Notes: generated by a model not told the origin, from the letters alone. A stretch of DNA of 45,001 bases from Catajapyx aquilonaris (GCA_000934665.2 JYFJ02003210.1:1-45001); one strand, 5' to 3'. Shown: positions 27,268 through 44,049, counted from the first letter of the stretch. A program made the numbers and translations.

Positions 27268-29313
27268 TTACTTCTTTGGAGACACAGGCTTGAACGCAAT
27301 CTTACGACTCTTGATCACCGACCACTTGTGCCTCTTCGCGTAGTATGACAGGGCAATTAGACCAGAGAAGATCATCAATGCCTGCAAGTAGACAAAAGGT
27401 ACCATCACATCATTTTCTCATTTGATTCGGCCCTTCCCAAGCATTCAACTAACAAGAAGCATCAGGTTCAAAACTGGAGCCATCAATTTTCCACTAGAGT
27501 TACATAATTTACGGCCACTTCACCAACAACACCCCAAGTCACTGGGCAGCAATTTTGTTACTCGAGCGTGTATCATGCCAGCTGAGTACAACTTGCCTTG
27601 AGTGCCATCCTCTTGCGCTCATCGTACTCTGGTTCCGCTGCCCACTTGAGGAAGGTGCAGACATCTTTTGCCAGCTGTGAGGCGGTGGCAGGGGTGCCAT
27701 CTGAGTACTCCATCAACTTTTGGGCAAGAGGAGGAAAATTAGCATCTGCATCAAACACAATACAGTCGAGTCTGCTTGCATTACACCCTGGATTGATAAG
27801 AAAATCGAGGACTGACAGTAATTTCAAAATACTGCCATGTAAAATTTTCTCACCATGGAGTAACACTACCAGGTTTCACGGTTTTAACCTGTACCAGACT
27901 GGAAGCACTTACCTCATTGTACAGGGCCTGTGCCATGCTGATGGCTCCACCAGCAAAGTATGGGTTGTAGTACTGGCCTTCTCTGAGCTGAATTCCAGCG
28001 GGAGCATCGCAATAGCCAGTGAGGAGCGAAAAGATGTAATCCTCGCCGCCATGTCTTGCGGAGGTAATATAACTGAGGTCAGGGGGGAAGGCCCCGTTGT
28101 TGGCAGCTCTTGCAGCTTCCTCGTTCGCGTAGGGACTGGGGAAGTAGTCGGACAGTTTTCCTGGACGCATGAACATGTTGCCATTTTCATCTGGTCCATC
28201 CTGCACCTGCACCTCCTCTGCCTCAGCCTTGGCTTCCACCTCCGTGTGGGACACCCCAATCAGATTGCGGTAGGCAATAAACCGCATGCTGTGACACGCA
28301 GCACACACCTGCTTGTACACTTCATACCCACGACGAACGCTGCAAAGAGGTTGGAATGAAATTATTGACACTATTCTGCTTAATTATGTGCCAGACACGG
28401 ACTTGTAACAAATCAATTGTAACTCATGCAGAGTCAGATGACAACACATAAAAAATAACACTCGACCCTTTTATGAACATCATCTAAATTTTACACCTTT
28501 CAGAAATCACTGGCCGGAAATTGACGCACATCATCTCTCTGCTACTCCTACCTACTAAAGAACTAAACCAACCAACATACCCACCTAGCATGGTCAAGGG
28601 ATTGGAAGTACCCGTTGTGGCTCCAAGGGAACTTTGGTGTGTGCAACTCCAGGTCTCCGGCACTTACTGAGCACTCCAGGGCACAGGCGACGCCTAGGGC
28701 ACCACCAGACAGAACACCCAAGGTTCCCAGGACCTGAAATCAAGTAGAATAATGCTAAGAATTGGGGAAAGTGCAGAAGAGAGGCACCAAAGACGATGGT
28801 ACTCACCACTTTCCGCGACCTGGACATGTGGCGAAGCATCCCAAATGCCGACTGGAAAGAAAAGGCACAAATTATGAAAACATTCCTTGAAGTGAAATTC
28901 ACACTTTCAGATGCATGAAAATTGAAGGTAACTGGAACGTTGAAAGAGGCACGCAGGGGTAAACATGCAGTTAATTAAATGAACCACCCCAGGGAATTCA
29001 GGTGCTCTGCTGTTGGGAGTTGGCCAGCTAACCGAACATGCCGAACATATAGAATTTACCCACCATTGTTGTAAATTACACCAGCTGCTGCTGCTGTCCT
29101 GGAGTAACAATTAATTATTATTTCCGAATGATGTTCCGAGAGGATCGGAGGGGCAGGGGAAGCGGCCCGCGCTGTTTGTGCCCTCTTTGTCTGTCCGCCT
29201 GGCCGGGTCTGGGGCAGTGGGTCGGACGGAGTTGAGGTGACCGTGAGCGGGGGGACCTACAGCTGCTGGGAAGATGAGGAGCCGATCCTGCCCCTGGAAC
29301 AGACGGCGGCCAT
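27268..29313 (-). CDS. CYC1: Cytochrome c1, mitochondrial complex III, ~323 aa
   Basis: Exons 29313-29261, 29098-29064, 28931-28903, 28851-28807, 28733-28585, 28339-27913, 27716-27597 and 27381-27268 (972 nt). Contains [16 protein letters not shown] (heme CxxCH), PPDLS, YYNPYF, GTPAT and KRHKWS. The two smallest presequence exons are inferred from phase. Confidence 0.95.
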
Positions 29314-29545: not shown

Positions 29546-30532
29546 AACACAGCAGCTTATGTAATAGCTATTGTAAGCTGATATGAATATATTAAATCGA
29601 ATGTAGCTTCAAGAAGTAGCAGTTGCAACATTTGAATTGACATGAATATGGAAATGGGCTGCCCCCAAACCCTGTTCCCGTCCTGCAGTACAGAGCCCTT
29701 TGCTGCCCAATAAATTGGAAGATATATGCAGTGCAACCCTGTCATTATTATTGTTCGATCGGTTCCCTAGGCCACACACACCTATTTGTTATTATCCTCC
29801 CCAGACTTATTATGGTGCAGGTAGGGTGATGATTAATTTATACACCACATCCTTCTGCTGCAGCATCAGGCCAAGAGGTATGACCAGGAGGGAGTGAATA
29901 GCACCAAGGGCCAATAGTACATTTATTGCTGCACTCCTGATAAACAACCAAGGTCCACTGCTGGAAGAGGACTGGGAATCAGATCAATCGCTGTAATTTA
30001 CTCGCAAAAGGTACGTACTGTTTAATATACACATTGAATGCAGGAAGCCATTGCAGGCTTAGCTGCCACATGGGCTGCATTGTGGTATTAGATGTTTACT
30101 TCTTTGCACCTACACAAACACAAATTAATGTGGCATTATTGTATCAGGGTTTCCTGTTTTATTCTCATGCACATATGGTCAAGAAAAATCCTTTTCAATG
30201 TCCCTTATTGCAACTATTGCAGAAGGAGCATACAAAAATGACTAGTCAGAAAATACTGACATGTCATGACAGTCTGAAAAACTAGAGTGACCTTTTCAGG
30301 ATCTACAAAGTAACTTTGTCTCTATGATGAACTAAGATTAGGGAGAACGGTTTAGAAGCCTTGCTGCTTTGCTAGAATCAAACTCAAAATGTGGCCATGC
30401 ATTTCATGTCAAATCGTATCCCTCCCAAGTATTTTCCCACTCACCGCAAAGCCTACATGAGTCTGTTGTCAATGACGGACCTACATTATTTTGACTGGAT
30501 TCTGCCTTTTCCTCTAGGGCCAGTGGTCAGGC

Positions 30533-31375
30533 ATGGATGGGAAACAATTTAAAATCGCCAGACCACGCATGATCTGGGACCAACCCAAACCACCAGGCTG
30601 GAGTAAACCATGGAAACGGACCGTTTCCAGCACACCCATTGCCCCTCCCACCAATGCTTCACAAGTTAAGCCGATGTTAGTGCACAGAATCAATGCTAAG
30701 GAAGAGGCAGGCATTGGCGTGACGTTAGGAGTTACCACAAGGCCACCCCCCCGAGTGCCTGATGATGATGAAAGCAAAGAGAGCCAAGCCTTTGCTACGC
30801 AGCTCAGCAACATGTTGATAATCACCGGGGAGGCCGGTGAAGCTGGCAGTACAGGTGACTTCCAATCTCATTCAGCATCCGACTCCACCATCAGTGCTGA
30901 CAGTGGGACCTGCAAAAGACTACCCATCCGCAGCTCTGTGATGCAAGTACCAGTCACACAACGGATGGTCAGGCGCAAGTGGAACAGGCATGGTGAGCAC
31001 CAGTGCTACATAGGCATCCTCTTGGCTCTGGCAGATGGGAAGCTAATCCAGGGAAGGGCCAACATGAAGCAGAAAGATGGGGGTGACCCACAGCTGTGCA
31101 GATCTCCATGGCTGGACTTGCCAGAGATCTTTGCCCATATTGCATCATCACCATTGTCCAAAGACAAACCAACCAAGAAGTTGCTGATCGACATGAACCA
31201 CGGGCTGGAAATCACCCACAAAGATGGTCTAGTGAAATGCCACCATGACCCAAAGGGAAAATCTCTCTACGCCCTCACCAAAATAGGACAGGAAGAAGCG
31301 CAGCTGCTGATGGGTCAACCACCCAAGAAAACCTCTACCACTCAGGCTGGCAAGCTCGCTCAGTTCCGCGTATAA
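30533..31375 (+). CDS. Uncharacterised 280-aa protein with a probable C-terminal winged-helix domain
   Basis: Long intact ORF after the acceptor ctgccttttcctctag (30517); C-terminus YIGILLAL..GLVKCHHDPKGKSLYALTKIGQEEAQLL. The N-terminus may extend into upstream exons. Confidence 0.6.
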   Translation: MDGKQFKIARPRMIWDQPKPPGWSKPWKRTVSSTPIAPPTNASQVKPMLVHRINAKEEAGIGVTLGVTTRPPPRVPDDDESKESQAFATQLSNMLIITGEAGEAGSTGDFQSHSASDSTISADSGTCKRLPIRSSVMQVPVTQRMVRRKWNRHGEHQCYIGILLALADGKLIQGRANMKQKDGGDPQLCRSPWLDLPEIFAHIASSPLSKDKPTKKLLIDMNHGLEITHKDGLVKCHHDPKGKSLYALTKIGQEEAQLLMGQPPKKTSTTQAGKLAQFRV

Positions 31376-32281
31376 TGATCAGGATCAATGGAGCAGCGAG
31401 TGGCTTCCTTTCCATCTCGCCAGCCCATCTCGCCTGGAAACTGTCTGTGGGATGAAGGCAATACATTTATCACTGTGTGAACACTATTCGTTAGAATGTG
31501 CCCTATCCTAGGTGTCCCATGACCAATCACAAATCCAGGGCAAGTGGTTGGCCCATGCCATTTATGCAGAACTAACCACTTGTTCACTAGGTCATAGATT
31601 TTAAAACATATTTTATGACGGCATTAAAAATGAATTAATCAGATCCACTATATTTATTTGACATTAGACCATGAGCTACACTCCGGTAATGCCAGGTGAA
31701 GGGGAGAGTCGGTAAGAATTGGAGTCGGGTAGGGGTGGCAGATAAACCATGTAAATTAGTACTCCACTCGATTCAAGCAGCCCATCAATTTATTGAAATA
31801 TGGCAGCAAGGAAGAAATTCTGATGGCCAAACCGGAGTGATTTTCCCACAAATTATTGCAATTTCTGTGTGGACACTTTTCTACCTACTGCAGTAGAAAG
31901 AAAATCGAACATTTTAAACCATAAACAGGTACGTATTAATTTATTCAGAAAAAGTGACATTACAATTTTTGCACAAAAAATGGATGTTACGTTGAAGTCC
32001 CTATTTCAGCAAATTCAGACACCGCCTGATATTAATGGCACCCATGACCCATCCAATATCAACATTCATGTAGGAGTCCAAGTGCACATCAAGGACACTT
32101 GGAGCAACTCACCAGGAGCATGGCACGGTCTCAGGCCTCTATCTGCAGGACACAAAAGGAAGGGTCAAGCAAAAATGCAAAAGGCACCATCAACCTTGAG
32201 CTTTTAAACACGCAGATGGAACAAACATACAGCCCCCCCCCTCCGTGACCCAGACTCCCAAATTCTACAATCCCTTTGCTA

Positions 32282-32394
32282 CAGCCCTGCCGTCAGATGC
32301 AAGAAGACCATAGCTCAAAAACTAGTAACGGTGCAAGTCTTTCACCCATACTAGTTTTTGCGTTACAGTCTTCCTGCATCTGACGGCAGAGCTG
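32282..32394. mobile_element. 113-bp hairpin MITE with TA TSD
   Basis: TA|cagccctgccgtcagatgcaagaagac ... gtcttcctgcatctgacggcagagctg|TA. Confidence 0.85.
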
Positions 32395-32565
32395 TAATAA
32401 TTGCACATTCTCAATCACCCCTGTTTAAACAATGACAGTTTTAGCCAGCTGCCCTTAGCATGAAAATAACTCTAAGACCAAAATAAAGCACTCTCTCCTA
32501 CCACAACTCCATTGAAAAATAAGATCCCTCTTATGGTTTCTGACATGACATAGTCCAGCAAGTGA

Positions 32566-32647
32566 TGGCTCAGCAAAGTAATATTCCGGTAAAAGGGGTT
32601 ATAATCATTCATTTGATCATCCGGGCGAGGGTTTTGCATCACAGCCA
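32566..32647 (-). ncRNA. Box C/D snoRNA, target unrecognised, copy 1
   Basis: tggct-GTGATGC-aaaaccctcgcccgg-ATGA..TGAATGA..CTGA-gcca; terminal stem; paralogue at 33908-33991. Confidence 0.75.
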
Positions 32648-33510
32648 GTGCACAGAATATGTCAATACTACCCAACAATCACCTGGGTCATTTAGAGAAG
32701 TGTCGCAACAGCGTGCCTGGTCACTTCCACAGGGATCACAATAATGTAGGTAAAGCTACCGAGTGACAGCCAATAGCTTGCCACTATCATTCATTATCAA
32801 TTGTCAATAAATATGCAAATAAACAAATGACCCAAAAATTTCAATCCTCCTAATACAGGTAGTACCCGTTTTACGCCGGAAATTGGTTCCAGCAAAATGA
32901 TGTGCTTAGTGAAAAGGCATAAAACGAGACAAAATTATAATGAAAATGACATAGGTTCCAAGATTTCCAAAAAATTTCCCTCAGACAGTACTTAAATTGC
33001 TGTTTTAAATGCTTACTATTTGAAACATTTATTATGCACATTTTATGGGAGGTTCCAGGTTGAGGGTCATTGGGTACTGAGGCCTCTTTTCCCAAGAACT
33101 GCAGTAGACAATGACATTTAACAAATTTCAGGGAGTCCGGAGACCAACAATACGGTACTGTACTTATCGATAGACCCAGTCACAAGGCACCACGATATGG
33201 CCGTGTCTTCGGACTCTGCAGTCTTGCATGACGTGTTTATGTTCAGATTGTATTATCTTCACAATTTTTCAATTTTAAAAAGTCCTTTTCAAAGCGTTAA
33301 TGTGGAACTGCGTGAAATGGGCACTTCCTGTATCTATTCGGGCCTAGTTACCTCAATTCCATCAGTAGATGAGGTCCATTTCTCCTGCATCACTTCCTAA
33401 GATAAGAGAGAATCCAGGTGTAAATAACAGCCATATATGTCTACACAGGTAATCAGATTAATTAAATTCCCAGTCTAATGTTACAGGCATAGAATGACTT
33501 CATTTTAAGA

Positions 33511-33577
33511 TGCCTCAGAGGTTGTGTTATCTCCAACTTATACCTCAGAGATATGCTTGTTTTCACCGTCACAGGCA
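33511..33577 (-). ncRNA. SNORD27: Box C/D snoRNA U27 homologue (18S Am27 guide)
   Basis: tgcct-GTGACGG..ACAAGCATATct-CTGA..CTGA-ggca. The guide is complementary to 18S AUAUGCUUGU, in the same D'+5 register as U27. The C box is degenerate. Confidence 0.8.
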
Positions 33578-33587
33578 GAAAATGGAT

Positions 33588-33651
33588 AATTGAAGGGTGC
33601 AGTGCAAGAGGGGGCATGAGTCATGCCCCTCTTGCACTGCCCCCTTCAATT
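33588..33651. repeat. Near-perfect 64-bp palindrome
   Basis: aattgaagggtgcagtgcaagagggggcatga-g-tcatgcccctcttgcactgcccccttcaatt. Confidence 0.85.
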
Positions 33652-33907
33652 AACTAATTAACCAGATGTAGGGCCTAGTTACATAAAACTTTACTTAAAA
33701 TGATGTTCACCAAACATTCATCGAGTTACTTTGAGTAATTAAAACTCTGTTCTTCCTCACCTTTACACCCCAGTATTTGGTTGGATGAGAAGGCTGCAAG
33801 TTGTCATGATCATCAGTTCACATGGGAAGTCTCATACCTGATGGAATATGAGAAAGGTGGGTAGATACATACACATAAGGTTAAAAAATTCACCCTGAAC
33901 ACATGTG

Positions 33908-33991
33908 GTGGCTCAGCAAAAAATTGTTTCCGGTAAAAGGGATATAATCATCCATTTGATCATCCGGGCGAGGGTTTTGCATCACGGCCAC
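33908..33991 (-). ncRNA. Box C/D snoRNA, target unrecognised, copy 2
   Basis: gtggcc-GTGATGC-aaaaccctcgcccgg-ATGA..TGGATGA..CTGA-gccac; about 70 nt upstream of the acceptor at 33838. Confidence 0.75.
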
Positions 33992-34308
33992 TTATCCATA
34001 GAAATAGATTCAACTCCATACTACTTGTATCCTAGTATTTTGCACTACTGGGTCAACCAAAATCCTTCCAGAAAATACTTTAAACTCGGCACCCACTACT
34101 TTTCAACACCCAAGATCTCACAGTAGCCACTAAGAAATTACACCCTGCAAGATTTGTATCGTCAGAAAAACCACTCACCATGCATGCATCAGGCCAACAG
34201 GCTGGAAATTCCTTCAGCCTGCAAAACCAAACAAGTAGCTGAGTGGCAAAAAATCAACTGAGAAAACAATAATTATGTTCACTAGGAAGGACTGAAGGCC
34301 AGTTAAGT

Positions 34309-34389
34309 GGAAGCTCAGGCAATAGGGACGATCGTATATCTTCATCGTTAACTCCAAGCGAGCTGGGTATTTTTGTCATCACTGCTTCC
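34309..34389 (-). ncRNA. SNORD29: Box C/D snoRNA U29 homologue (28S guide), copy 1
   Basis: ggaagca-GTGATGA..ACCCAGCTCGCt-TGGA..CGATGA..tccctattgc-CTGA-gcttcc. The guide pairs with 28S GUGAGCUGGGU (D'+5 on the A), and tccctatt pairs with the adjacent AAUAGGGA. Confidence 0.8.
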
Positions 34390-34576
34390 AACTGCCCCCT
34401 GCCTCGAAGTGAATGTCAAGACACCCGAAGCCTTACCTGATATGACCGTCCCGGAAGTGCTCCATTTTCCTCCACACTCGCAGATGTCCACCAGAAACAT
34501 CTGAAAAGCACAATTATGTTTGGTTTTCCTTCATCTGACTTGTCAAGCATACGAGCAATAAGAGTCAAGAGAGGTA

Positions 34577-34642
34577 GCAGTCTCAGATAAACCTTTCTTC
34601 AACTATAATCAGACTGGGGCGGTAACTCTCATCACAGACTGC
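34577..34642 (-). ncRNA. SNORD31: Box C/D snoRNA U31 homologue (28S Gm guide)
   Basis: gcagtct-GTGATGA-gagt-TACCGCCCCAGT-CTGA..CTGA-gactgc. The guide is complementary to 28S ACUGGGGCGGUA and matches the U31 guide as I recall it. Confidence 0.92.
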
Positions 34643-34960
34643 ACCTCTGCTTCACCAAACACTGCTCATAGCTTTTACATTAGTGGATTTTTTTGTTTTG
34701 TTTGGCTACACTGGGCCAGGCAAAATGTAATGCTGAGAAATTTATGTTGCGCCTTTTCTTGTCCCGGGGAAATTACTTGAAAGTGACTTACCTATATTAC
34801 CAAATTCCTGGCCAACTCATGAAGGAGCATGTCCTCTACCACCGTGATGGAAAACCACTTTTCATCATATCGTTGCGAGCACCTGAAAGGTTCCAGTGCA
34901 TAATAAGTAGACTACCAATGGCGACATGCAACATTCATAGATGTATGCATCTGGAATGAA

Positions 34961-35031
34961 CTGTCTCAGATATTCAGCAGTCAGTCACAAGGGATATGCC
35001 AGGGATAACTTATTTTCAGCATCATGGACAG
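34961..35031 (-). ncRNA. SNORD1: Box C/D snoRNA snR38/SNORD1 homologue
   Basis: ctgtcc-ATGATGC..AGTTATCCCTGg-CATA (degenerate D')..GTGACTGA..CTGA-gacag. The guide is complementary to 28S CAGGGAUAACU. Confidence 0.75.
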
Positions 35032-35211
35032 ACTTCCAGAAGTAAAGCAAAGTCCATGCATATCGCAAATTTGGTCTCACCTGACCCTGAAATGGTCCTC
35101 TTGTTCAGCTGACCCAAAGTGAAGCTCCAGGTGCTCTTCCTGTCAATAAAAAATGCAATGTTGGAGAAATGTAAGTATTACTTCACAGCACCTCGGCTCA
35201 TCCCATATGTA

Positions 35212-35422
35212 CTCCCACGAGCATAACGATGGAGACGGCAGGCCCTTTTTTGACCTTGCTTTATGCGACTCAAATTAATGAACTCTTTTTGGACCGAGTT
35301 AGCTGCTTCAGTCGTGTCTTCGTGTATTTATGTCAGTATATTTGATACCGTAATAGCTGCAATTGGCAGAGCAGCCTGCCGAAGGTGAAGGCTTGCCGTC
35401 TCCATCTTTATGCTCGCGGGTG
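35212..35422. mobile_element. Tc1/mariner-type MITE with TA TSD
   Basis: TA|ctcccacgagcataacgatggagacggca ... tgccgtctccatctttatgctcgcgggtg|TA. The empty site (catatgtacaataa) is present in the duplicate at ~39112-39125. Confidence 0.9.
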
Positions 35423-35466
35423 TACAATAATTGGCTTCAGAAGATTTGCAATCTAAATTTGTTTCA

Positions 35467-36221
35467 AGAGCGCGCTCTAGGCTCCGCGTCCCATTGTTGC
35501 GGGCAGCCCGTCGCGGCCCGGCTCGTGAGTTTGATGCTTCTTCCTCTCACTGTCACGGTCGCAAATATGGAGGTATCGGCATGAAACAGGAGTATCTGGA
35601 CACAAAAGAGTTGCACTTTGAAATGGTGCGTTTATTTTTCTCCTGGGGCGATATTTGCGGCCGCCGTGGCCAGGTACAGTTCTTTATTTTGACCCGCAAT
35701 CACTCCTTTCCATGTCGGGACCTGTGAGATTCGAGCCCATGACAAGTTTTTACGCCGAATTACCGTAAGTGTGTGAAAGGGCACGAGTGTGGCAGTCTTG
35801 GTTTGGCCAAACTTTGGGACGAAAAATACCCCCCTCCATGAACAATAAGAACTCGCACGAAGAACTGGCAGAACTGGCGAATGATCTGGCAGCGCCGCGC
35901 TGACTGCCAGTTCCGTAACCACTGTGACTGAGATAAGGTAGAGCGCTAAGCACTTACACTTACGGTAATTCGGCGTAAAAACTTGTCATGGGCTCGAATC
36001 TCACAGATACCGACATGGAAAGGAGTGATTGCGGGTCAAAATAAAAAACTGTACCTGGCCGCGGCGGCCGCAAATATCGCCCCAGGAGAAAAATAAGCGC
36101 ACCGCCTCAAAGTGCAACTCTTTCGCGTCCAGATACTCCAGTTTCATGCCGATACCTCCACATTTGCCGGGCAGCGACTGGCTCCCCGCAACAACGGGAC
36201 GCGGAGCCTAGAGTGCACTCT
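35467..36221. mobile_element. PIF/Harbinger-like long-palindrome MITE, copy A
   Basis: agagcgcgctctaggctccgcg ... cgcggagcctagagtgcactct|TAA; arms of about 270-300 bp. Confidence 0.8.
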
Positions 36222-36789
36222 TAATGTCCCAATAATGACTCCAAACATATCAGCATTAAGGAGAAAGGACGAATAGACAATTTATCCTAAAATGGCAAGA
36301 AGGTACGTCTCAAGGTGTCATCACCCATTGCATGTTTTGGTGAAACAGCAGATGTGTACATGGAACAGTCTGCCTGTGTGAGAAAGTGGTCCCAGCGACT
36401 ATCCAAAAGCAGCGTAAGGAGAAAGGGCGAATATCCACAGGCATGCGACAAGGGTTATTCACTCATATTTTTTGAATACACAGACTACCCTTGGTGAACA
36501 ACTCCTGGTCCATGGTCTTTCCGGAGGATTTACATTACTAGCCTGATGAACTTGGCAACGCCGTACTTTATCGATACACAGCTGGGACCAATATCCATTT
36601 AATTTATTACACTTAACCCTCTCTCTGCCACTAGATTTGATGGTTTCTTAAATTGCAATTAGGGGGTGGGTGTCCTCCTTGAGCCTTATTTCCCCACGAA
36701 ATATTGCTTAGAATCCAATCAATTTGCTAAATTCCCAAAATTGAGCTAGTCTTCATACAACCTCTATCGTTGTGCACTAAGCCAGAATT

Positions 36790-38208
36790 GACCAATTTCC
36801 AGTTGCACGCCTCTCGCAGCCAATTTTGGCCTGCCATCAAAATGGCGGTGTTAGCTGTGCAGAGGCGGGACTTTCCTATCCCTGCCCATGTTAAATGGCC
36901 TCTGCTTGCTCGCATCTCGGGGTCTGGCCCCAGGGCAGATCTTGTTGACATCTTTTTTTGTGGAGTGAGGAGGTTCCTGGCCTGCCCTCACCAGGTTTCA
37001 GAAGTTAATTGGCCCCCGGGCGGACTGCCCCCGGAGTGATTTTGTGAATGGTGATCGCGCTTTTCTCATTGCTGTCCGGGCTCCGATTGTCCGCGTCTGG
37101 GGGTCAGGCCCCGGGGCAGATCTTGTTGACATATTTTTTTGTGGAGTGAGTATGTTCCTGGCCTGCCCTCACCAGGTTCGAAAAGTTAATTGGCACCCGG
37201 GCGGACTGCCGCCGGAGTGAATTTGTGAGTGCGAGTTTCTTATTACTAATATCCGGTCTCTTTATTGTCCACGTCTGATGGTTTGGTCCCGGGGCAGATC
37301 TTGCTGGTTACTTTGTTTTGGAGTGAACATAGACCGGACTTTACCAGGTGCCTGAAGTGAATCAGCCCCGAGGCGAAGTGCCCCCGGACCCGGAGTGATT
37401 TTGTTATAGTGACAGCACTTTTCTCATTATTATCTGGGCTCCGATTATCCGCATCTGGTGGTTTGGCCCTGTGGTAGATCTTGCTGAGCATTTTTTTGAA
37501 TGGTTCCACTAATTTCATAAATTACAGTGTCACATTACACTCCCAGCATAACAGAACTGTTGCAAAAATATGCACGTATACGGTACAATCTTATCGCAAA
37601 CATTCATTAGAACAAATGACAGATTTTTTTTAAATGAGCAAGCTACAAACTTACACAAACATAGTCAAAAGGGTTCATCCTCAGCAAGATCTGCCCCGGG
37701 GCCAAACTGCCAGACGCAAACAATCGGAGCCCAGATATACGTAATAATGAGAAAAGCGCGGTCACCTCTATGAAACAAAATCACTCCGGGTCCGGGGGCA
37801 CTTCGCCTCGGGGCCGATTCACTTCACGCACCTGGTAAGGGAAGGTCCGGTCTCTGGTCACTAAAAAAAACCCAGCAAGATCTGCCCCGGGGCCAAACCA
37901 TCAGACGCGGACAATAAAGAGACCGGATATTAGTAATGAGAAACTCGCACTCACAAAATCACTCCGGCGGCAGTCCGCCCGGGGGCCAATTAACTTTTGG
38001 AACCTGGTGAGGGCAGGCCAGGAACATACTCACTCCACAAAAAAATATGTCAACAAGATCTGCCCCGGGGCCTGACCCCCAGACGCGAGCAAGCAGAGGC
38101 CACTTAACATGGGCAGGGATAGGAAAGTCCCACCTCTGCACAGCTAACGCCGCCATTTTGATGGCAGGCCAAATTTGGCCGCGAGAGGCGTGCAACTGGA
38201 AATTGGTC
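36790..38208. mobile_element. Foldback-type element with AATT TSD (Sola1-like), arms of ~180-bp tandem repeats
   Basis: AATT|gaccaatttccagttgcacgcctctcgc ... gcgagaggcgtgcaactggaaattggtc|AATT. The empty site gccagaattgggtg is at 40351-40364. Arms ~36790-37500 and ~37683-38208 contain repeated ggccccggggcagatcttg units. Confidence 0.88.
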
Positions 38209-38296
38209 AATTGGGTGCTGATCCAAGCTGCAAATTAGATACTACCACTGAGTCAAACAGTGATGCAGGTGGCATCCATTTGGCAAAGTTTATTGA

Positions 38297-38386
38297 GAGG
38301 AAGCTCAGGCAATATCATGGGAACGATGGTTTATCTTCATCGTTATGAACTCAAAGCGAGCTGAGTAGTCTCATCATTGCCTCCTC
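38297..38386 (-). ncRNA. SNORD29: Box C/D snoRNA U29 homologue, copy 2
   Basis: gaggaggca-ATGATGA-gactACTCAGCTCGCt-TTGA..CGATGA..cgttccc..attgc-CTGA-gcttcctc. Confidence 0.75.
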
Positions 38387-38894
38387 TTTCGCTGACAACC
38401 GCCCTTTCTGATTGGGCCCACCAGTGCAACAAAGCCTGCGAAACTGACCTGATGAATGCCAGCCCTGCCAGGAGCGTTGTCTGCCCAGGGCCCGGCGCAC
38501 TGAGATTCCCAATGCACCTGCAGCAGGGTCCAAGTGCCAAACCCCATGCTCCTCACCCTGCATCCTCCCTGCCGTATTTCCTGTAATATTAAGAGAACAG
38601 CGCCATGCATATTCAGAGGCGTGGAATGCCAGCGGATGGGTCTGGCTGGGCCTAGATATGGCCGGATCCTCGTGGCCTGCACACAGTTCCCTCTCTCACC
38701 TTCTCGTCTCCTTTTGCGGTCCCCGGCTTGGGTTGGATGCTGGGGAAGGTGCCTGCCCCCAGTCCTTTCCCCGTGGCTTGACCCCGCTGACCAACCCCTG
38801 GGCTTGAGAGCGCTGGACTCGGGTGGATCACTTGGGACACTTCCGCACTCTTCGCCAGACCACTGCGGAAAAGGATGAAGAGGGTGGCTCGTTC

Positions 38895-38942
38895 GTCACA
38901 AGGGATATGCCAGGGATAACTTATTTTCAGCATCATGGGCAG
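38895..38942 (-). pseudogene. Truncated snR38/SNORD1 copy at the duplication junction
   Basis: C box and AGTTATCCCTG guide retained; the D-box end is replaced by junction sequence. Confidence 0.65.
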
Positions 38943-39161
38943 ACTTCCAGAAGTAAAGCAAAGTCCATGCATATCGCAAATTTGGCCTCACCTGACTCTG
39001 AAACGGTCCTCTTGTTCAGCTGACCCAAGGTGAAGCTCCAGGTGCTCTTCCTGCCAATAAAAAATGCAATGTTGTAGAAATGTAATTACTTCACAGCACC
39101 TCGGCTCATCCCATATGTACAATAACTGGCTTCAGAAGATTTGCAATCTATATTTGTTTAA

Positions 39162-39832
39162 AGAGTGCGCTCTAGGCTCCGCGTCCCATTGTTGCGGGGA
39201 GCCCGTCGCGGCCCGGCCCGTGAGTTTGACACTTCTTCCTCTCACTGTCACGGTCGCAAATATGGAGGTATCGGCATGAAACTTGAGTATCTGGACACAA
39301 AAGAGTTGCACTTTGAGATGGTGCGTTTATTTTTCTCCTGGGGCGATATTTGCGGCTGCCGCGGCCAGAAACAGTTTTTTATTTTGACCTGCAATCACTC
39401 CTTTCCATGTCGGTACCTGTGAGATTCGAGCCCATGACAAGGTGTTTACGCCGAATTACCGTGTGTGAAAGGGCACGAGTGTGGCAGTCTTGGTTTGGCC
39501 AAACTTTGGGATCAAAAATACCCCCCTCCATGAACAATAAGAGGCGTAAAAACCTCCTCATGGGCTCGAATCTCACAGGTACTGACATGGAAAGGAGTGA
39601 TTGCGGGTCAAAATAAAAAAAACTGTACCTGGCCTCGGCGGCCGCAAATATCGCCCCAGGAGAAAAATAAACGCACCATCTCAAAGTGCAACTCTTTTGA
39701 GTCCAGATACTCCAGTTTCATGCCGATACCTCCATATTTGCGGCCTTGACAGCAAGAGGAAGCGTCAAACTCACGGGCCGGCCCGCGACGGGCTCCCTGC
39801 AACAATGGGACGCGGAGCCTCGAGCGCGCTCT
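39162..39832. mobile_element. PIF/Harbinger-like long-palindrome MITE, copy B
   Basis: TAA|agagtgcgctctaggctccgcg ... cgcggagcctcgagcgcgctct|TAA. Confidence 0.82.
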
Positions 39833-39861
39833 TAATGTCCCAATAATGACTCAACATATCA

Positions 39862-39940
39862 GCATTCAGGAGAAAGGACGAATAGACAATTTGTCATAAA
39901 ATGGCGAAAAGGCATGTCTCAAGGTGTCATCACCCATTGC
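39862..39940 (-). ncRNA. Candidate box C/D snoRNA
   Basis: GTGATGA..ATGA..CTGA about 67 nt apart, with a weak stem. The paralogue at ~36253-36330 has CTTA in place of the D box. No target recognised. Confidence 0.35.
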
Positions 39941-40447
39941 ATGTTTTGGTGAAACAGCAGATGTGTACATGGAACAGTCTGCCTGTGTGAGAAAGTGGTC
40001 CCAGCGACTATCCAAAAGCAGCGTAAGGAGAAAGGGCGAATATCCACAGGCATGCGACACAGACTACCCTTGGTGAACAACAACTGGTCCATGGTGTCTT
40101 TCCGGAGGATTTACATTACTAGCCTCATGAACTTGGCAACGCCGTACTTGATCGATACCAATATCCATTTAATTTATTACACTTAACCCTCTCTCTGCCA
40201 CTAGGTTTGACGGTTTCTTAAATTGCAATTAGGGGGTGGGAGGTGTCCTCCTTGAGCCTTATTTCCCCACGAAACATTGCTTAGAATCCAATCAAATTGC
40301 TAAACCCCCAAAATGGAGCTAGTCATTCAACCTCCATCGTTGTGCACTAAGCCAGAATTGGGTGCTGATCCAAGCCGCAAATTAGATACTACCATTGAGT
40401 CAAGGAGTGATGCAAGTGGCATCCATTTGGAAGGGTTTATTGAGAGG

Positions 40448-40534
40448 AAGCTCAGGCAATATATCAATGGTGGAAGATAGTATCTCGTCATCGTTTTGAA
40501 CTCAAATATTGGCGGACTAGTCTCATCATTGCTT
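40448..40534 (-). ncRNA. U29-scaffold box C/D snoRNA with a replaced guide, copy 3
   Basis: aagca-ATGATGA-gactAGTCCGCCAATAt-TTGA..CGATGA..attgc-CTGA-gctt. Boxes and spacing are as in copy 2, but the guide differs. Confidence 0.7.
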
Positions 40535-40987
40535 TGGCTGCAGCTGACCCCCCGCCCTTCCTGATTGTGCCCACCTCCAGTGCAAACGAAGCCTGCGAAA
40601 CTGACCTGACGAGGAGCGTTGTCTGCCCAGCAGTCCCCCGCGTGCATCTCCAGCAGGGTCTAAGTGGCAAACCCCACGCTCCTCCTCACCCTGCATCCCG
40701 GCGTATTCCTGCAACAGAACAGCGCCATGCATAGACTGGAAGAGGTGTGGGACGCCAGCCAGCCAGCGGATGGGTCTGTCTGGGCCTAGATATGGCCGGA
40801 TCCTCGTGGCCTGCATGCCCGCAGTTCCCCCCACTCACCTTCTCTCGTCTCCCTCCCTTTGCGGTCCTCCCCGGCTTGGTTTGGATGCTGGGGAAAGGTG
40901 CCTGCCTGCCCCCAGTCCGTGGCTTGACCCCACTGGGCCTGAGCCACGCTTGACTCCCAGGGTGGATCACTTGCGACACATCCTCAC

Positions 40988-41105
40988 CCTTCGCCAGACC
41001 ACGCCGGAAAGAAAGAATAAAGGAAAAGGAAAGGCGAAAAGGGGCGGACGGAAGGTGGGTGGAGGAGGAGGGGCATCATCCGGTCCAATACTATCGATAC
41101 ATCGA
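40988..41105 (-). promoter_or_regulatory. Putative TCT/TOP promoter and first exon of the snoRNA host gene
   Basis: Minus strand ttCTTTCTTTCCggcg then donor agg|gtgagg; GC box ggggcgg at 41041; DRE TATCGATA at 41092-41099. Confidence 0.6.
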
Positions 41106-41904
41106 TCCCACATATCGGGCACGATGATCTCATCCTCTCTCCACAACAGCCCCATCCATCACCAAGCTCTTCCCAATGGTGGTGATGATAATGTCCTATT
41201 CCACAGCTGCAGCTCTATCAAGGCATCATCTCCACTCTCCAGCAGGAGGGACAACAAGCGGCCCCTGACCGGCGTGGCCCGTGTGCCTCCAAGCATATCG
41301 ACACTCATTGTTGAGTATCGATGTTTGTTCCTACAACGTTGCCACATTTTCAGGTGTTCAGTAGTTGGATGCAAACAAGATTGCATTTCAAATGCAGAGT
41401 CTGAAGAAATAACTGAAGAGATGCTGCTGTGCGGTGTGGACTCTGGTGTGTGGTGGATGCACCAGTGAGTATATAACATGCACTTGATAATCCAGACCAG
41501 GGCCCGGGTGCAACAACTCATCAGATAGTGAGATAGGGGGAATTATTCCGCGTTTATGGTTGGTACTATAGTTTCACCAAAACGAAGAGGCGCTGCGAGT
41601 ACGATACCTAGACGAAGCGGATGTAATAAATGAACACATAATTAGGATTTAATACAATGCATTACGTAGTAAAGTTATGCGAAAACCTAATAAAATATTT
41701 AAATTTGTAAACTGTTAGCGTAGTTCATAAGATACCCATGACGCCACAAGACACCTGTCACATCTGCCTGCCACTTTCAAATTTTGGTCAAATTTCATCT
41801 TGGAAATATGCCAGAAACCAGTATAGTTGGATCCACAGGGTTTCAACGGATCTTTGAAGAAAGGAACCTGCACAGCAGTCTCTTTCTTCAACAGAAGAAT
41901 AATC

Positions 41905-44049
41905 ATGCCCAAAAAGATCCCATCTAGGCACGTTTGCTATCTGAAAGGATGCAAAAACAACGACGCTACGGAGTGCACTTCAGCCAGGCTGTTCTACTTC
42001 CCAAGAAGTCAAGAAGTGTAAGTAATTTTTGAAACTCATAGAAGTCGTTGCTGGTCCTTGAGTTATTGCAATTTTATCCGGGTCGGCCCATTTAAAAAAA
42101 AAAAAAATACATTGTTGTATCCACCCACAGCCGTCTGTGGGCCAAGTTTCAGCTCTTTGTAGGTGACCTGGAAGTTCGGTACATAGCCCGGACATAATGG
42201 AAAAAAAAATCCTTTATACTTGCCCAGTATAGTTCGCCCTCCCCAAAAAAGTGAAGTGGTGGCGGGGGTAATAAACAAAATGTGACCACAAATTTCCATT
42301 ATGATTATCTGGACTTTAGAATGGATAATTATTGAATAGTAACATGGGAGTTAAGGGGATACAAAAGTTGAAGTTGATTTGACAGTTAACAACTGAAATA
42401 AATATGATTACACATTGGACAGTGAATTTCCGTAGGGTCAGGTAAAAATTGCTTCCATTACGTTTATGATACTTAGCAGCAGGATATCAATTTTATAATG
42501 AACCCCAGGGTCCACACAAATCTGAAGGCAGCATTAAAATTAATTACAAAAAAATCAACCACGGAAAAAGTCCGCGAGACATCCCTTTTTTAAATTCCGT
42601 AGTATATTTTTGTAATTAATTTTAATGCTGCCTTCTGATTTGTGTGGCCCCTGGAGTCCATCCTTAAAATTGATATGCTGCTAAGGAACATATAAACGTA
42701 GTGGAAGCAATTTTTACCGGACCCTACGGAAATTCACTCCCCAAGGTGTAATCCTATTTATTTCAGTTCTTAACTGTCAAATCAACTTCAAGTCTTGTGT
42801 CCACCTAACTCCCATGTTACGATTCATAATATTCTAAAGTCCAGATAATCATAATGATGATTTTTTATCACATTTTGTTTATTACCACACCACACCATTT
42901 TTTTGGGGGTGCGCGAACAACACTGGGGGTGGTGCAACCATTACATATGCTATGTAGGTGCAACCAACCCAGGGGTAGTGTTTGTTTAATGTGAATAATG
43001 TTCTTAATTGCTATTTCCAAGTAAATTTTCAGTGACAGCATCAGTCAAATGTGAAGTCATTATTAATGATTCACACTTAATGACAATCAGGAATCACTTA
43101 ACTTTGGTGAGACATGTACATTCCAGTTGAGCTGTACTACCTATCAGCACCTTTTTGTAATATATGACTAATGACTTTATGAAATTATTTTAATACTGAT
43201 GTAATTCTGAATAATGAACAGATAATAATTTAATGCTTAATTGCAATGAGTTTTTAATTACTTCTTTACCATTAACTACTGTTGATAACGTAACCATTAG
43301 TAACCAGAAATATACACCCAGTGTTTTTATTATTCAAAGTGATTATTTCAGTGTATAGTGTGCCTGCTGAGCTTAAATTGTCTGAGGTAAACAACTCCGC
43401 TACTAACAACTAGTGATACTGTCTTATTGTCAGCTACTTCATCATTGCGCATTTTTATTGCAGATTCTCACAGTGGCTGGCCTTTTGTGGCAACCCCACT
43501 CTCCATACTTCCCCTGAATCATTCAGGACTACACGCTTGATCTGCGGAGAGCATTTTGAAAAAAAATGCTTCACCAACAGCAAGGAGGACCAGCTGGTCC
43601 GAGGATCTATTCCTACTCTCCTGCCACAACCATGTCTGCAGGTGGATCCTCATCAGCTGGAGGCATATCAGGACCAAGGTCCATGCAGCAGCCGCAGCAC
43701 AACCCATCACAGTCCATCCAGCAGCACCGGCATGGAAGTCCTCCACGCCCAAGGTCCACCCAGCAGCAGCACAAGCCCAGCAATGGCTGATCCCATCAAC
43801 CTCCGGGCCTCTCCTAGTAGCTATGAGTCCATCTGCTCTCCTCCACATTCAGAGTCTGCATCAGCCCATCCAGAAACGCCTAAATCCAAATCACGCAGTA
43901 ATGTTGTGAGTTTGTCCCACCTGAAGATGACTCGCCTGTCCCAGTTCTGCAGCCCAACCACCAGGAGACTCTATCAAGAGGTCAAGAAGAAGGAGAAGGT
44001 ACTGCGGCAGGTGAAGAAGACATGTTTAGGCATGTTATATACTCTGTGA
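41905..44049 (+). CDS. THAP-domain protein (host gene or P-element-derived), possibly with further exons
   Basis: Exons 41905-42017 and 43464-44049 join in phase: C-YLKG-C..LFYFP..QWL..IC-GE-HF..SIPTL is the THAP C2CH signature. A further open exon-like segment lies at 44449-44602. Confidence 0.8.
42223..42927. mobile_element. ~700-bp palindromic MITE in the THAP gene intron
   Basis: Diverged ~340-bp inverted arms (cattatgattatctggactttagaat / attctaaagtccagataatcataatg; gaatttccgtagggtc / gaccctacggaaattc). Confidence 0.8.

Follow-up and report, generated by a model that had tools for sequence, protein, structure and literature searches.

A predicted non-coding snoRNA host gene with likeness to Drosophila Uhg1 on the minus strand of a 45-kb insect sequence

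Drosophila Uhg1 (FBgn0045800) is a long non-coding RNA (lncRNA) gene for which Table S6 of PMC11014333 lists 16 small nucleolar RNAs (snoRNAs) of the box C/D type: four copies of U31, four of U29, two of U76, three of U27 and three of snR38. In the same table, U31 is assigned to 28S-Gm3152, snR38 to Gm3348, U29 to Am3478 and U27 to 18S-Am28. Loss of Uhg1 is reported to affect five ribosomal RNA (rRNA) positions and to slow growth (PMC4430873). Human SNHG1 (UHG, the U22 host gene) is described as hosting SNORD22 and SNORD25-31 (PMC7154078); it is placed in the terminal oligopyrimidine (TOP)/TCT promoter class, and the UHG RNA is said to be under nonsense-mediated decay (PMC6954239). In these genes, as in GAS5, other SNHG/UHG hosts and the UHG-like clusters of Neurospora (PMC2780460), the introns are the product, and the exons, short and with little coding potential, can be dispensed with. 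Here, a 45,001-nucleotide stretch of DNA (JYFJ02003210.1:1-45001; the whole of it is called the window) was analyzed. Its sequence argues, with considerable confidence, that the minus strand between 31.6 and 41.0 kb holds an insect snoRNA host gene that is non-coding, belongs to the UHG/SNHG class and is most likely the orthologue of Drosophila Uhg1. Genes of this kind are already known and ordinary, and nothing here overturns current understanding.

The locus and Uhg1 are both non-coding multi-exon hosts (the exons being predicted here) with intronic C/D snoRNAs of the same four guide specificities, in families of more than one copy, and four of the five Uhg1 families are present in the locus. 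In both, the U31 and snR38 target sites are spaced by 196 nt and the U27 box C is weak, the fly copies reading GUGAUGU, CUGAUGA and UUGAUGA (PMC11014333 Table S6). A pyrimidine-type promoter, listed as ‘dual-initiation’ in the fly (PMC11014333 Table S6), is predicted here too from a motif. The locus differs in having five intact copies of known families versus 16 in the fly, in carrying an orphan snoRNA pair (F and H), a U29-like copy whose guide has changed and a truncated snR38, and in introns that are several-fold larger and full of transposons. The neighboring cytochrome c1 exon is 92% identical to that of Diploptera punctata and 87% identical to that of Ladona fulva, with other arthropods next; because this similarity places the gene in an insect, probably a polyneopteran, orthology with Uhg1 is the natural reading. 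A literature search returned no description of Uhg1 orthologues in other insects, which is not proof that none exists.

SNHG1 is likewise a non-coding host with intronic SNORD27, SNORD29 and SNORD31. It differs in also hosting SNORD22, 25, 26, 28 and 30, none of which gave an independent Rfam match at an expectation value (E) of up to 10 in 30.5-42.5 kb, and snR38 is not among its eight snoRNAs. Three of those eight are found here, so the two loci do not carry the same set, by which orthology would be judged; the linkage of U27, U29 and U31 may be of common descent. GAS5, the other SNHG/UHG hosts and the Neurospora clusters have one C/D snoRNA per intron, as here, and their snoRNA sets differ; no homology to them is claimed. 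An earlier note on this DNA had proposed an orthologous cluster, stating that SNHG1 hosts U27, U29 and U31 and that Uhg1 hosts these and snR38. The first statement agrees with the SNORD22 and SNORD25-31 listing (PMC7154078); the second is right as to all four families and left out the two U76 copies (PMC11014333 Table S6). The proposed orthology stands for Uhg1 as the natural reading, whereas the link to SNHG1 comes down to the three common families.

The exon chain was derived by reading the minus strand and scoring splice consensus. Its downstream, unique part comprises eight predicted exons, with one snoRNA in each of the first six introns (snoRNAs of the locus are lettered A to H; distances are those between the end of box D and the acceptor AG):

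35081..35139, minus strand: predicted exon, first of the downstream chain (splice consensus)
34959..35033, minus strand: snoRNA C, snR38-type, with a degenerate D' box (CAUA); box D 83 nt from the acceptor (Rfam, pattern scan, guide)
34792..34882, minus strand: predicted exon (splice consensus)
34577..34642, minus strand: snoRNA D, SNORD31/U31; box D 82 nt from the acceptor (Rfam above gathering score, pattern scan, guide)
34437..34500, minus strand: predicted exon (splice consensus)
34310..34387, minus strand: snoRNA E, a SNORD29/U29 copy; box D 96 nt from the acceptor (Rfam, pattern scan, guide)
34179..34218, minus strand: predicted exon (splice consensus)
33905..33992, minus strand: orphan C/D snoRNA F, GUGAUGC ... 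CUGA, 5-bp terminal stem; box D 75 nt from the acceptor (pattern scan)
33761..33837, minus strand: predicted exon (splice consensus)
33511..33577, minus strand: snoRNA G, SNORD27/U27-type, box C GUGACGG, box D CUGA, UGCC/GGCA stem; box D 118 nt from the acceptor (guide)
33352..33396, minus strand: predicted exon (splice consensus)
32562..32649, minus strand: orphan C/D snoRNA H, paralogue of F (pattern scan, alignment with F)
32113..32142, minus strand: predicted exon (splice consensus)
31635..31887, minus strand: predicted last exon; AATAAA signals occur at 31794-31789 and 31658-31653 (splice consensus, motif scan)

In the locus as a whole, all 14 predicted internal exons are flanked by AG and GT, and their donors match seven to nine of nine consensus positions. 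The U29 copy further upstream (B, at 38.3 kb) has its box D 77 nt from the acceptor. The four snoRNAs with a working acceptor at 75-83 nt (B, C, D and F) fit the rule of about 70 nt, a distance upstream of the 3' splice site that is described as optimal in vertebrates and as seen in Drosophila (PMC1821038).

The snoRNAs were sought by a pattern scan of both strands of the window for a box C, a box D 55-130 nt further on and a terminal stem no shorter than 4 bp. The minus strand gave ten matches versus one on the plus strand, and nine of the ten fall within 32570-40529; in dinucleotide shuffles of the region (n=200), the mean was 0.33 matches and the maximum three, versus the nine real ones. 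Seven of these nine were accepted as units: A, B, C (snR38), D (U31), E (U29), F and H, with terminal stems of 4-9 bp, as the general box C/D criteria demand, which ask for RUGAUGA close to the 5' end, CUGA close to the 3' end and a short stem between the two ends. The remaining two, at 39859-39933 and 36250-36324 in a duplicated intron, are doubtful, having weak stems, a candidate guide that differs between the copies and no consistent target. The U27 unit (G) escaped the scan because its box C reads GUGACGG.

Rfam was searched at gathering thresholds over the window and at permissive E-value thresholds over 30.5-42.5 kb. At gathering thresholds a single family was found in the window, SNORD31 (RF00089) at 34577-34642 on the minus strand, with 45.0 bits against a threshold of 40. 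All further C/D matches at permissive thresholds lie on the minus strand. They include SNORD29 (RF00070) at 38300-38382 (36.8 bits versus 48; E 2e-4) and at 34310-34387 (31.4 bits versus 48; E 6e-3), snoR38/snR38 (RF00213) at 34959-35033 (34.6 bits versus 45; E 0.015) and SNORD27 (RF00086) at 33511-33577 (21.7 bits versus 52; E 9.3 when 12 kb were searched and 1.2 when 1.5 kb were). Each of these four matches is the top-scoring family at its own position. The assignment of SNORD27 was made because of its guide rather than its Rfam model score.

The guides were compared with ribosomal DNA (rDNA) taken from metagenome contigs in which the U31 target is followed, after a gap of 170-200 nt, by the snR38 target. 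This yielded 96 eukaryotic loci, and in two of them, L030 and L048, the complete 18S, 5.8S and 28S genes were delimited with Rfam. On both, the U31 guide pairs perfectly with 28S over 12-13 bp, after which comes the D' box CUGA, and the snR38 guide pairs perfectly over 11 bp with CAGGGAUAACU in 28S. The two U29 copies each form 11 bp with GUGAGCUGGGU in 28S, including two G-U pairs in B (38.3 kb) and one in E (34.3 kb). The U27 guide, ACAAGCAUAU, is followed by CU and then by the D' box CUGA, and forms 10 perfect base pairs with 18S at 25-34 (L030) or 26-35 (L048). By the fifth-nucleotide rule, the predicted sites in L030 numbering are 28S G2902 (U31), G3098 (snR38) and A3229 (U29), and 18S A27 (U27). 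A guide of at least 10 nt before box D or D' that pairs with rRNA, its fifth nucleotide marking the site, was found in U31, snR38, both U29 copies and U27, and, over the 96 rDNA loci, in none of A, F and H.

Counted from the U31 site, the predicted snR38 site lies 196 nt and the predicted U29 site 327 nt further on. Human 28S Gm4166, Gm4362 and Am4493 have exactly this spacing (4362-4166 for snR38 and 4493-4166 for U29; positions from a table in PMC3511168), and Drosophila Gm3152, Gm3348 and Am3478 have it to within one nucleotide. The U31 and snR38 motifs were used to fetch the loci, so counting those two matches is circular; the search pattern included neither the U29 nor the U27 motif. Of the 96 loci, 86 have the U29 target motif at +327 to +339 and two others have it at +419; the remaining eight lack it, and most of these stop no more than about 340 nt past the U31 motif. 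The U27 target motif was found 4.7-7.6 kb upstream in 37 of the 96, many loci being too short to reach it. When the whole window was searched for perfect 10-mers to rRNA words common to L030 and L048 with CTGA within 2 nt, only the D' guides of U31 and U27 were returned: two on the minus strand and none on the plus strand.

Joined in silico, the eight downstream exons make up 659 nt; every frame has 10-12 stops, and the longest open reading frame (ORF) starting with ATG has 24 amino acids (aa). None of the 43 stop-to-stop ORFs of at least 70 aa that lie in the region or directly next to it, counting both strands, matched Pfam. Two of the traits by which the class is recognized, several introns with one snoRNA each and exons without a conserved ORF, were found, the exons being predicted; the others are a polypyrimidine (TOP/TCT) start and a transcript that is spliced and polyadenylated. 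The earlier note had seen much of this: it described the region as lacking a credible long ORF, with short minus-strand exons and introns that carry C/D RNAs with terminal stems, four of them about 70-90 nt from an acceptor. The ORF and pattern counts above bear this out, and the four distances are 75, 77, 82 and 83 nt. The four guide pairings that it quoted all recur on the L030 and L048 rDNA, and its naming of the targets as those of U27, U29, U31 and snR38 agrees with 18S A27 and with the human 28S spacing. A motif of the TOP/TCT type also lies where it had placed the start, at about 41013:

41006..41017, minus strand: two overlapping YYCTTTYY (TCT/TOP-type) initiator motifs, at 41017 and 41013 (motif scan)
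41092..41099, no strand: TATCGATA, a palindrome some 80 bp upstream of where transcription is predicted to start (motif scan)

Transcription is predicted to start at C 41015 or C 41011, and further YYCTTTYY motifs occur at 41043 and 41030. The palindrome TATCGATA is one that we take to be of the DNA replication-related element (DRE) type. Polypyrimidine initiators are described as being used by snoRNA host genes (PMC6954239).

A THAP-domain gene on the plus strand (about 41380-41468 and 43417-44049) seemingly lies head-to-head with the host gene, some 0.4 kb from its predicted start. Its second exon, at 43.4 kb and outside the host gene, matches Pfam THAP (E 1.5e-6, profile positions 28-86), and a CSVVGC motif was seen by eye in its first exon. 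The arrangement suggests a promoter region shared bidirectionally by the THAP gene and the host gene.

Upstream of the unique part, the 5' part of the locus is tandemly duplicated (REARRANGEMENTS), roughly as 41012-38895 versus 38873-34984:

40988..41013, minus strand: predicted exon 1, short form, donor AGG/GTGAGG; a long form runs to 40839, donor AAG/GTGAGT (consensus only)
40606..40708, minus strand: predicted exon 2, upstream copy; the short form ends at 40690 (splice consensus)
40450..40532, minus strand: snoRNA A, a U29-like C/D RNA (pattern scan, alignment)
38992..39050, minus strand: predicted exon, upstream copy of 35081-35139, in a repeat that is 96% identical (splice consensus)
38895..38944, minus strand: truncated snR38 that keeps box C and its guide (11 perfect bp with the 28S site) and lacks box D (sequence, guide)
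38700..38862, minus strand: second copy of exon 1, preceded by the acceptor ccttttccgcag; possible internal exon (splice consensus)
38449..38580, minus strand: predicted exon 2, downstream copy; the short form ends at 38557 (splice consensus)
38300..38382, minus strand: snoRNA B, SNORD29/U29, terminal stem of 9 bp; box D 77 nt from the acceptor (Rfam, pattern scan, guide)
36786..38212, no strand: foldback-type transposon of 1.4 kb (265-nt inverted arms, internal tandem subrepeats of about 180 bp)

The junction of the duplication cuts the snR38 copy after its guide and puts a good acceptor before the second copy of exon 1. The copies have diverged unevenly, with 72% identity (aligned columns) over the first 0.7 kb and 93-98% in later blocks. 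SnoRNA A has kept its boxes, its D' guide differs from that of U29, and it gave weak Rfam matches to DdR11 and snR75; the acceptor 77 nt downstream of it reads GG, versus AG in the other copy. The foldback transposon is present in the downstream copy only, inside the equivalent of exon 3, with AATT on both flanks. The locus has been reshaped: a tandem duplication of the 5' part left behind a truncated snR38 at its junction and a U29-like copy whose guide has changed and whose acceptor is dead, and several transposons have inserted into introns and into one exon copy.

Some smaller features of the duplicated part were also recorded. A 54-nt block (38628-38681 versus 40762-40815) is 98% identical between the copies and lies inside the stretch of about 72% identity. 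The duplicated intron holds elements with inverted repeats, resembling miniature inverted-repeat transposable elements, in both copies (35466-36222 and 39161-39833), and a small inverted-repeat insertion at about 35238-35420, seen by eye, is found in the downstream copy only.

Several observations weigh against the interpretation of the locus as a Uhg1-type non-coding host. The exons, the start site and the poly(A) site are all predicted from nothing but consensus motifs, and the rDNA used for comparison belongs to metagenome eukaryotes rather than to the source species. Four of the five family assignments (both U29 copies, snR38 and U27) fall under the Rfam gathering score, SNORD27 far under it, so that the Rfam check put forward in the earlier note succeeded for SNORD31 and left the others below threshold. 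The U27 box C is degenerate, as are the D' boxes of snR38 and U29. A U76-type snoRNA, of which fly Uhg1 has two, was not found in 30.5-42.5 kb with Rfam or in a guide search, the search for U76 being indirect. An E-box adjoins the start of Drosophila Uhg1, a Myc target according to PMC4430873, whereas the motif scan found no CACGTG in 41400-40800, around the predicted start here. Finally, a 181-aa ORF without a known domain can be assembled from the long-form GC-rich 5' exons across both repeat copies; it was given little weight because the copies differ by 17 insertions or deletions, 12 of which are not multiples of three.

Real snoRNAs could instead belong to a protein-coding gene and lie in its 5' untranslated part, the coding part being reached by a run-on into cytochrome c1 or through an unrecognized coding exon. 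Cytochrome c1 is on the same strand about 3 kb downstream and has a C/D-like element in one of its introns, and a precedent is Drosophila dUhg6, a supposed non-coding host that, according to PMC1821038, proved to be part of a coding gene. Such a continuation sits poorly with the two AATAAA signals in the predicted last exon and with the 285-aa plus-strand ORF between the host gene and cytochrome c1, and a coding signal was found in no exon of 31.6-41.0 kb; a coding host is therefore very improbable. The probability is at least as small that the snoRNAs are independent transcription units, or decaying copies in a transposon-rich region, and that the exons are chance pairs of GT and AG. The regularity of the layout speaks against this, with one snoRNA per intron, box D 75-83 nt before a working acceptor in four cases and donors that match seven to nine of nine consensus positions, as does the mostly intronic location of insect C/D snoRNAs (PMC11014333); in its favor, parts of the locus are clearly degenerate, namely the truncated snR38, snoRNA A with its lost guide and acceptor, and the exon copy with a transposon inside.

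Convergence is the more serious alternative, although we regard it as unlikely: old snoRNA families would have moved independently into a non-coding host, making the locus analogous to Uhg1 and SNHG1 and not orthologous. SnoRNAs are known to shift between introns and hosts over long times (PMC6984369; PMC3511168), U76 was not found, the orphan pair is present and three of the eight SNHG1 families are common. Against this, four of the five Uhg1 families occur together in one non-coding host, in a genome that cytochrome c1 places in the same class (Insecta) as the fly.

If the locus is a non-coding host of the Uhg1 type, RNA polymerase II would transcribe some 9.4 kb of the minus strand, starting from the pyrimidine-rich TCT/TOP-type initiator near 41011-41015. 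As the many short, stop-rich exons are spliced together, introns would be freed with one box C/D snoRNA each, sitting roughly 70-80 nt ahead of the 3' splice site. Box C/D snoRNAs are in general stable RNAs of 60-100 nt to which fibrillarin, Nop56, Nop58 and Snu13 bind. Debranching and exonucleolytic trimming would follow, with the snoRNA shielded by the C/D core proteins, and the mature guides would select four sites: 18S A27 and the 28S equivalents of human Gm4166, Gm4362 and Am4493. On the best explanation of the data, the spliced host RNA is without coding function, and by analogy with UHG and GAS5 it is probably unstable.

The locus thus offers a concrete annotation of a type of gene that protein-based pipelines pass over, and one that pipelines using Rfam thresholds would shrink to one snoRNA. 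It predicts four rRNA methylation sites for the source species and adds a hemimetabolous data point on the persistence of the Uhg1 cluster. It also brings together, in one place, several processes of host evolution: tandem duplication, loss or change of guides, decay of splice sites and transposon invasion.

The orphan snoRNAs F and H are 86% identical over 111 alignment columns and share an identical run of 33 nt from box C onward, whereas outside the terminal stems their sequences are unrelated. Conserved bodies with flanks that are not conserved are the pattern expected of functional paralogues. No Rfam family was found for either, the best match being snoR117 (16.9 bits, E 2.5; H only). 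Targets for A, F and H were sought in the 96 rDNA loci with 10-mers allowing at most one G-U pair, binned by position, and with whole guides allowing up to two substitutions; neither search returned any. RNAduplex against the two complete rDNAs scored shuffled guides equal to the real ones, so this test did not discriminate. In A, an 11-mer can pair, in 88 loci, with a conserved 28S site; as this takes four G-U pairs and the 11-mer overlaps box C, it was dismissed as chance. An assignment of F and H to U76 was also set aside, as the U76 target did not seem to fit.

Two bolder readings, taken jointly, are tentative and on balance doubtful. F and H may together form a box C/D family not yet described, whose conserved 33-nt 5' half guides modification outside the conserved rRNA core; on that reading its targets may lie in an insect expansion segment, a small nuclear RNA or a messenger RNA. 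Insects and human both have U27, U29 and U31 linked in a non-coding host, and this linkage may have been inherited from the bilaterian ancestor. If true, this would make the locus one of the oldest traceable lncRNA loci, retained for its introns while its exons were wholly turned over.

Two foldback sequences were noted in introns of the downstream chain. About 10 nt upstream of the U27 unit, a near-perfect palindromic hairpin of 29 bp (33588-33651, both strands) gave sub-threshold matches to several unrelated microRNA models on both strands (mir-550, 43.8 bits versus 81); it probably represents a small insertion or a generic hairpin rather than any known microRNA. In the long intron after snoRNA H lies an inverted repeat (32280-32396) with 58-nt arms that are 84% complementary and 1 nt apart; it matched mir-708 weakly (23.7 bits, E 0.83).

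Just past the predicted 3' end of the host gene, on the plus strand, is the 285-aa open frame (30518-31375), without a Pfam domain. Between 8788 and 28383 lie further genes, mostly on the minus strand: a C2H2 zinc finger gene, SLX4 (BTB and Slx4 domains), uL6/RPL9 and cytochrome c1, with a leucine-rich repeat protein on the plus strand. The cytochrome c1 exons were found at 27573-28383 on the minus strand. The C/D-like unit in a cytochrome c1 intron (28434-28534, minus strand; AUGAUGU ... CUGA, with the 6-bp stem GCAGAG/CUCUGC) gave no Rfam match at E up to 1, and its box D ends 94 nt ahead of the acceptor. The 11 nt before this box D pair with 28S, including two G-U pairs, in 23 of the 96 rDNA loci, about 22 nt past the start of the U31 target motif.

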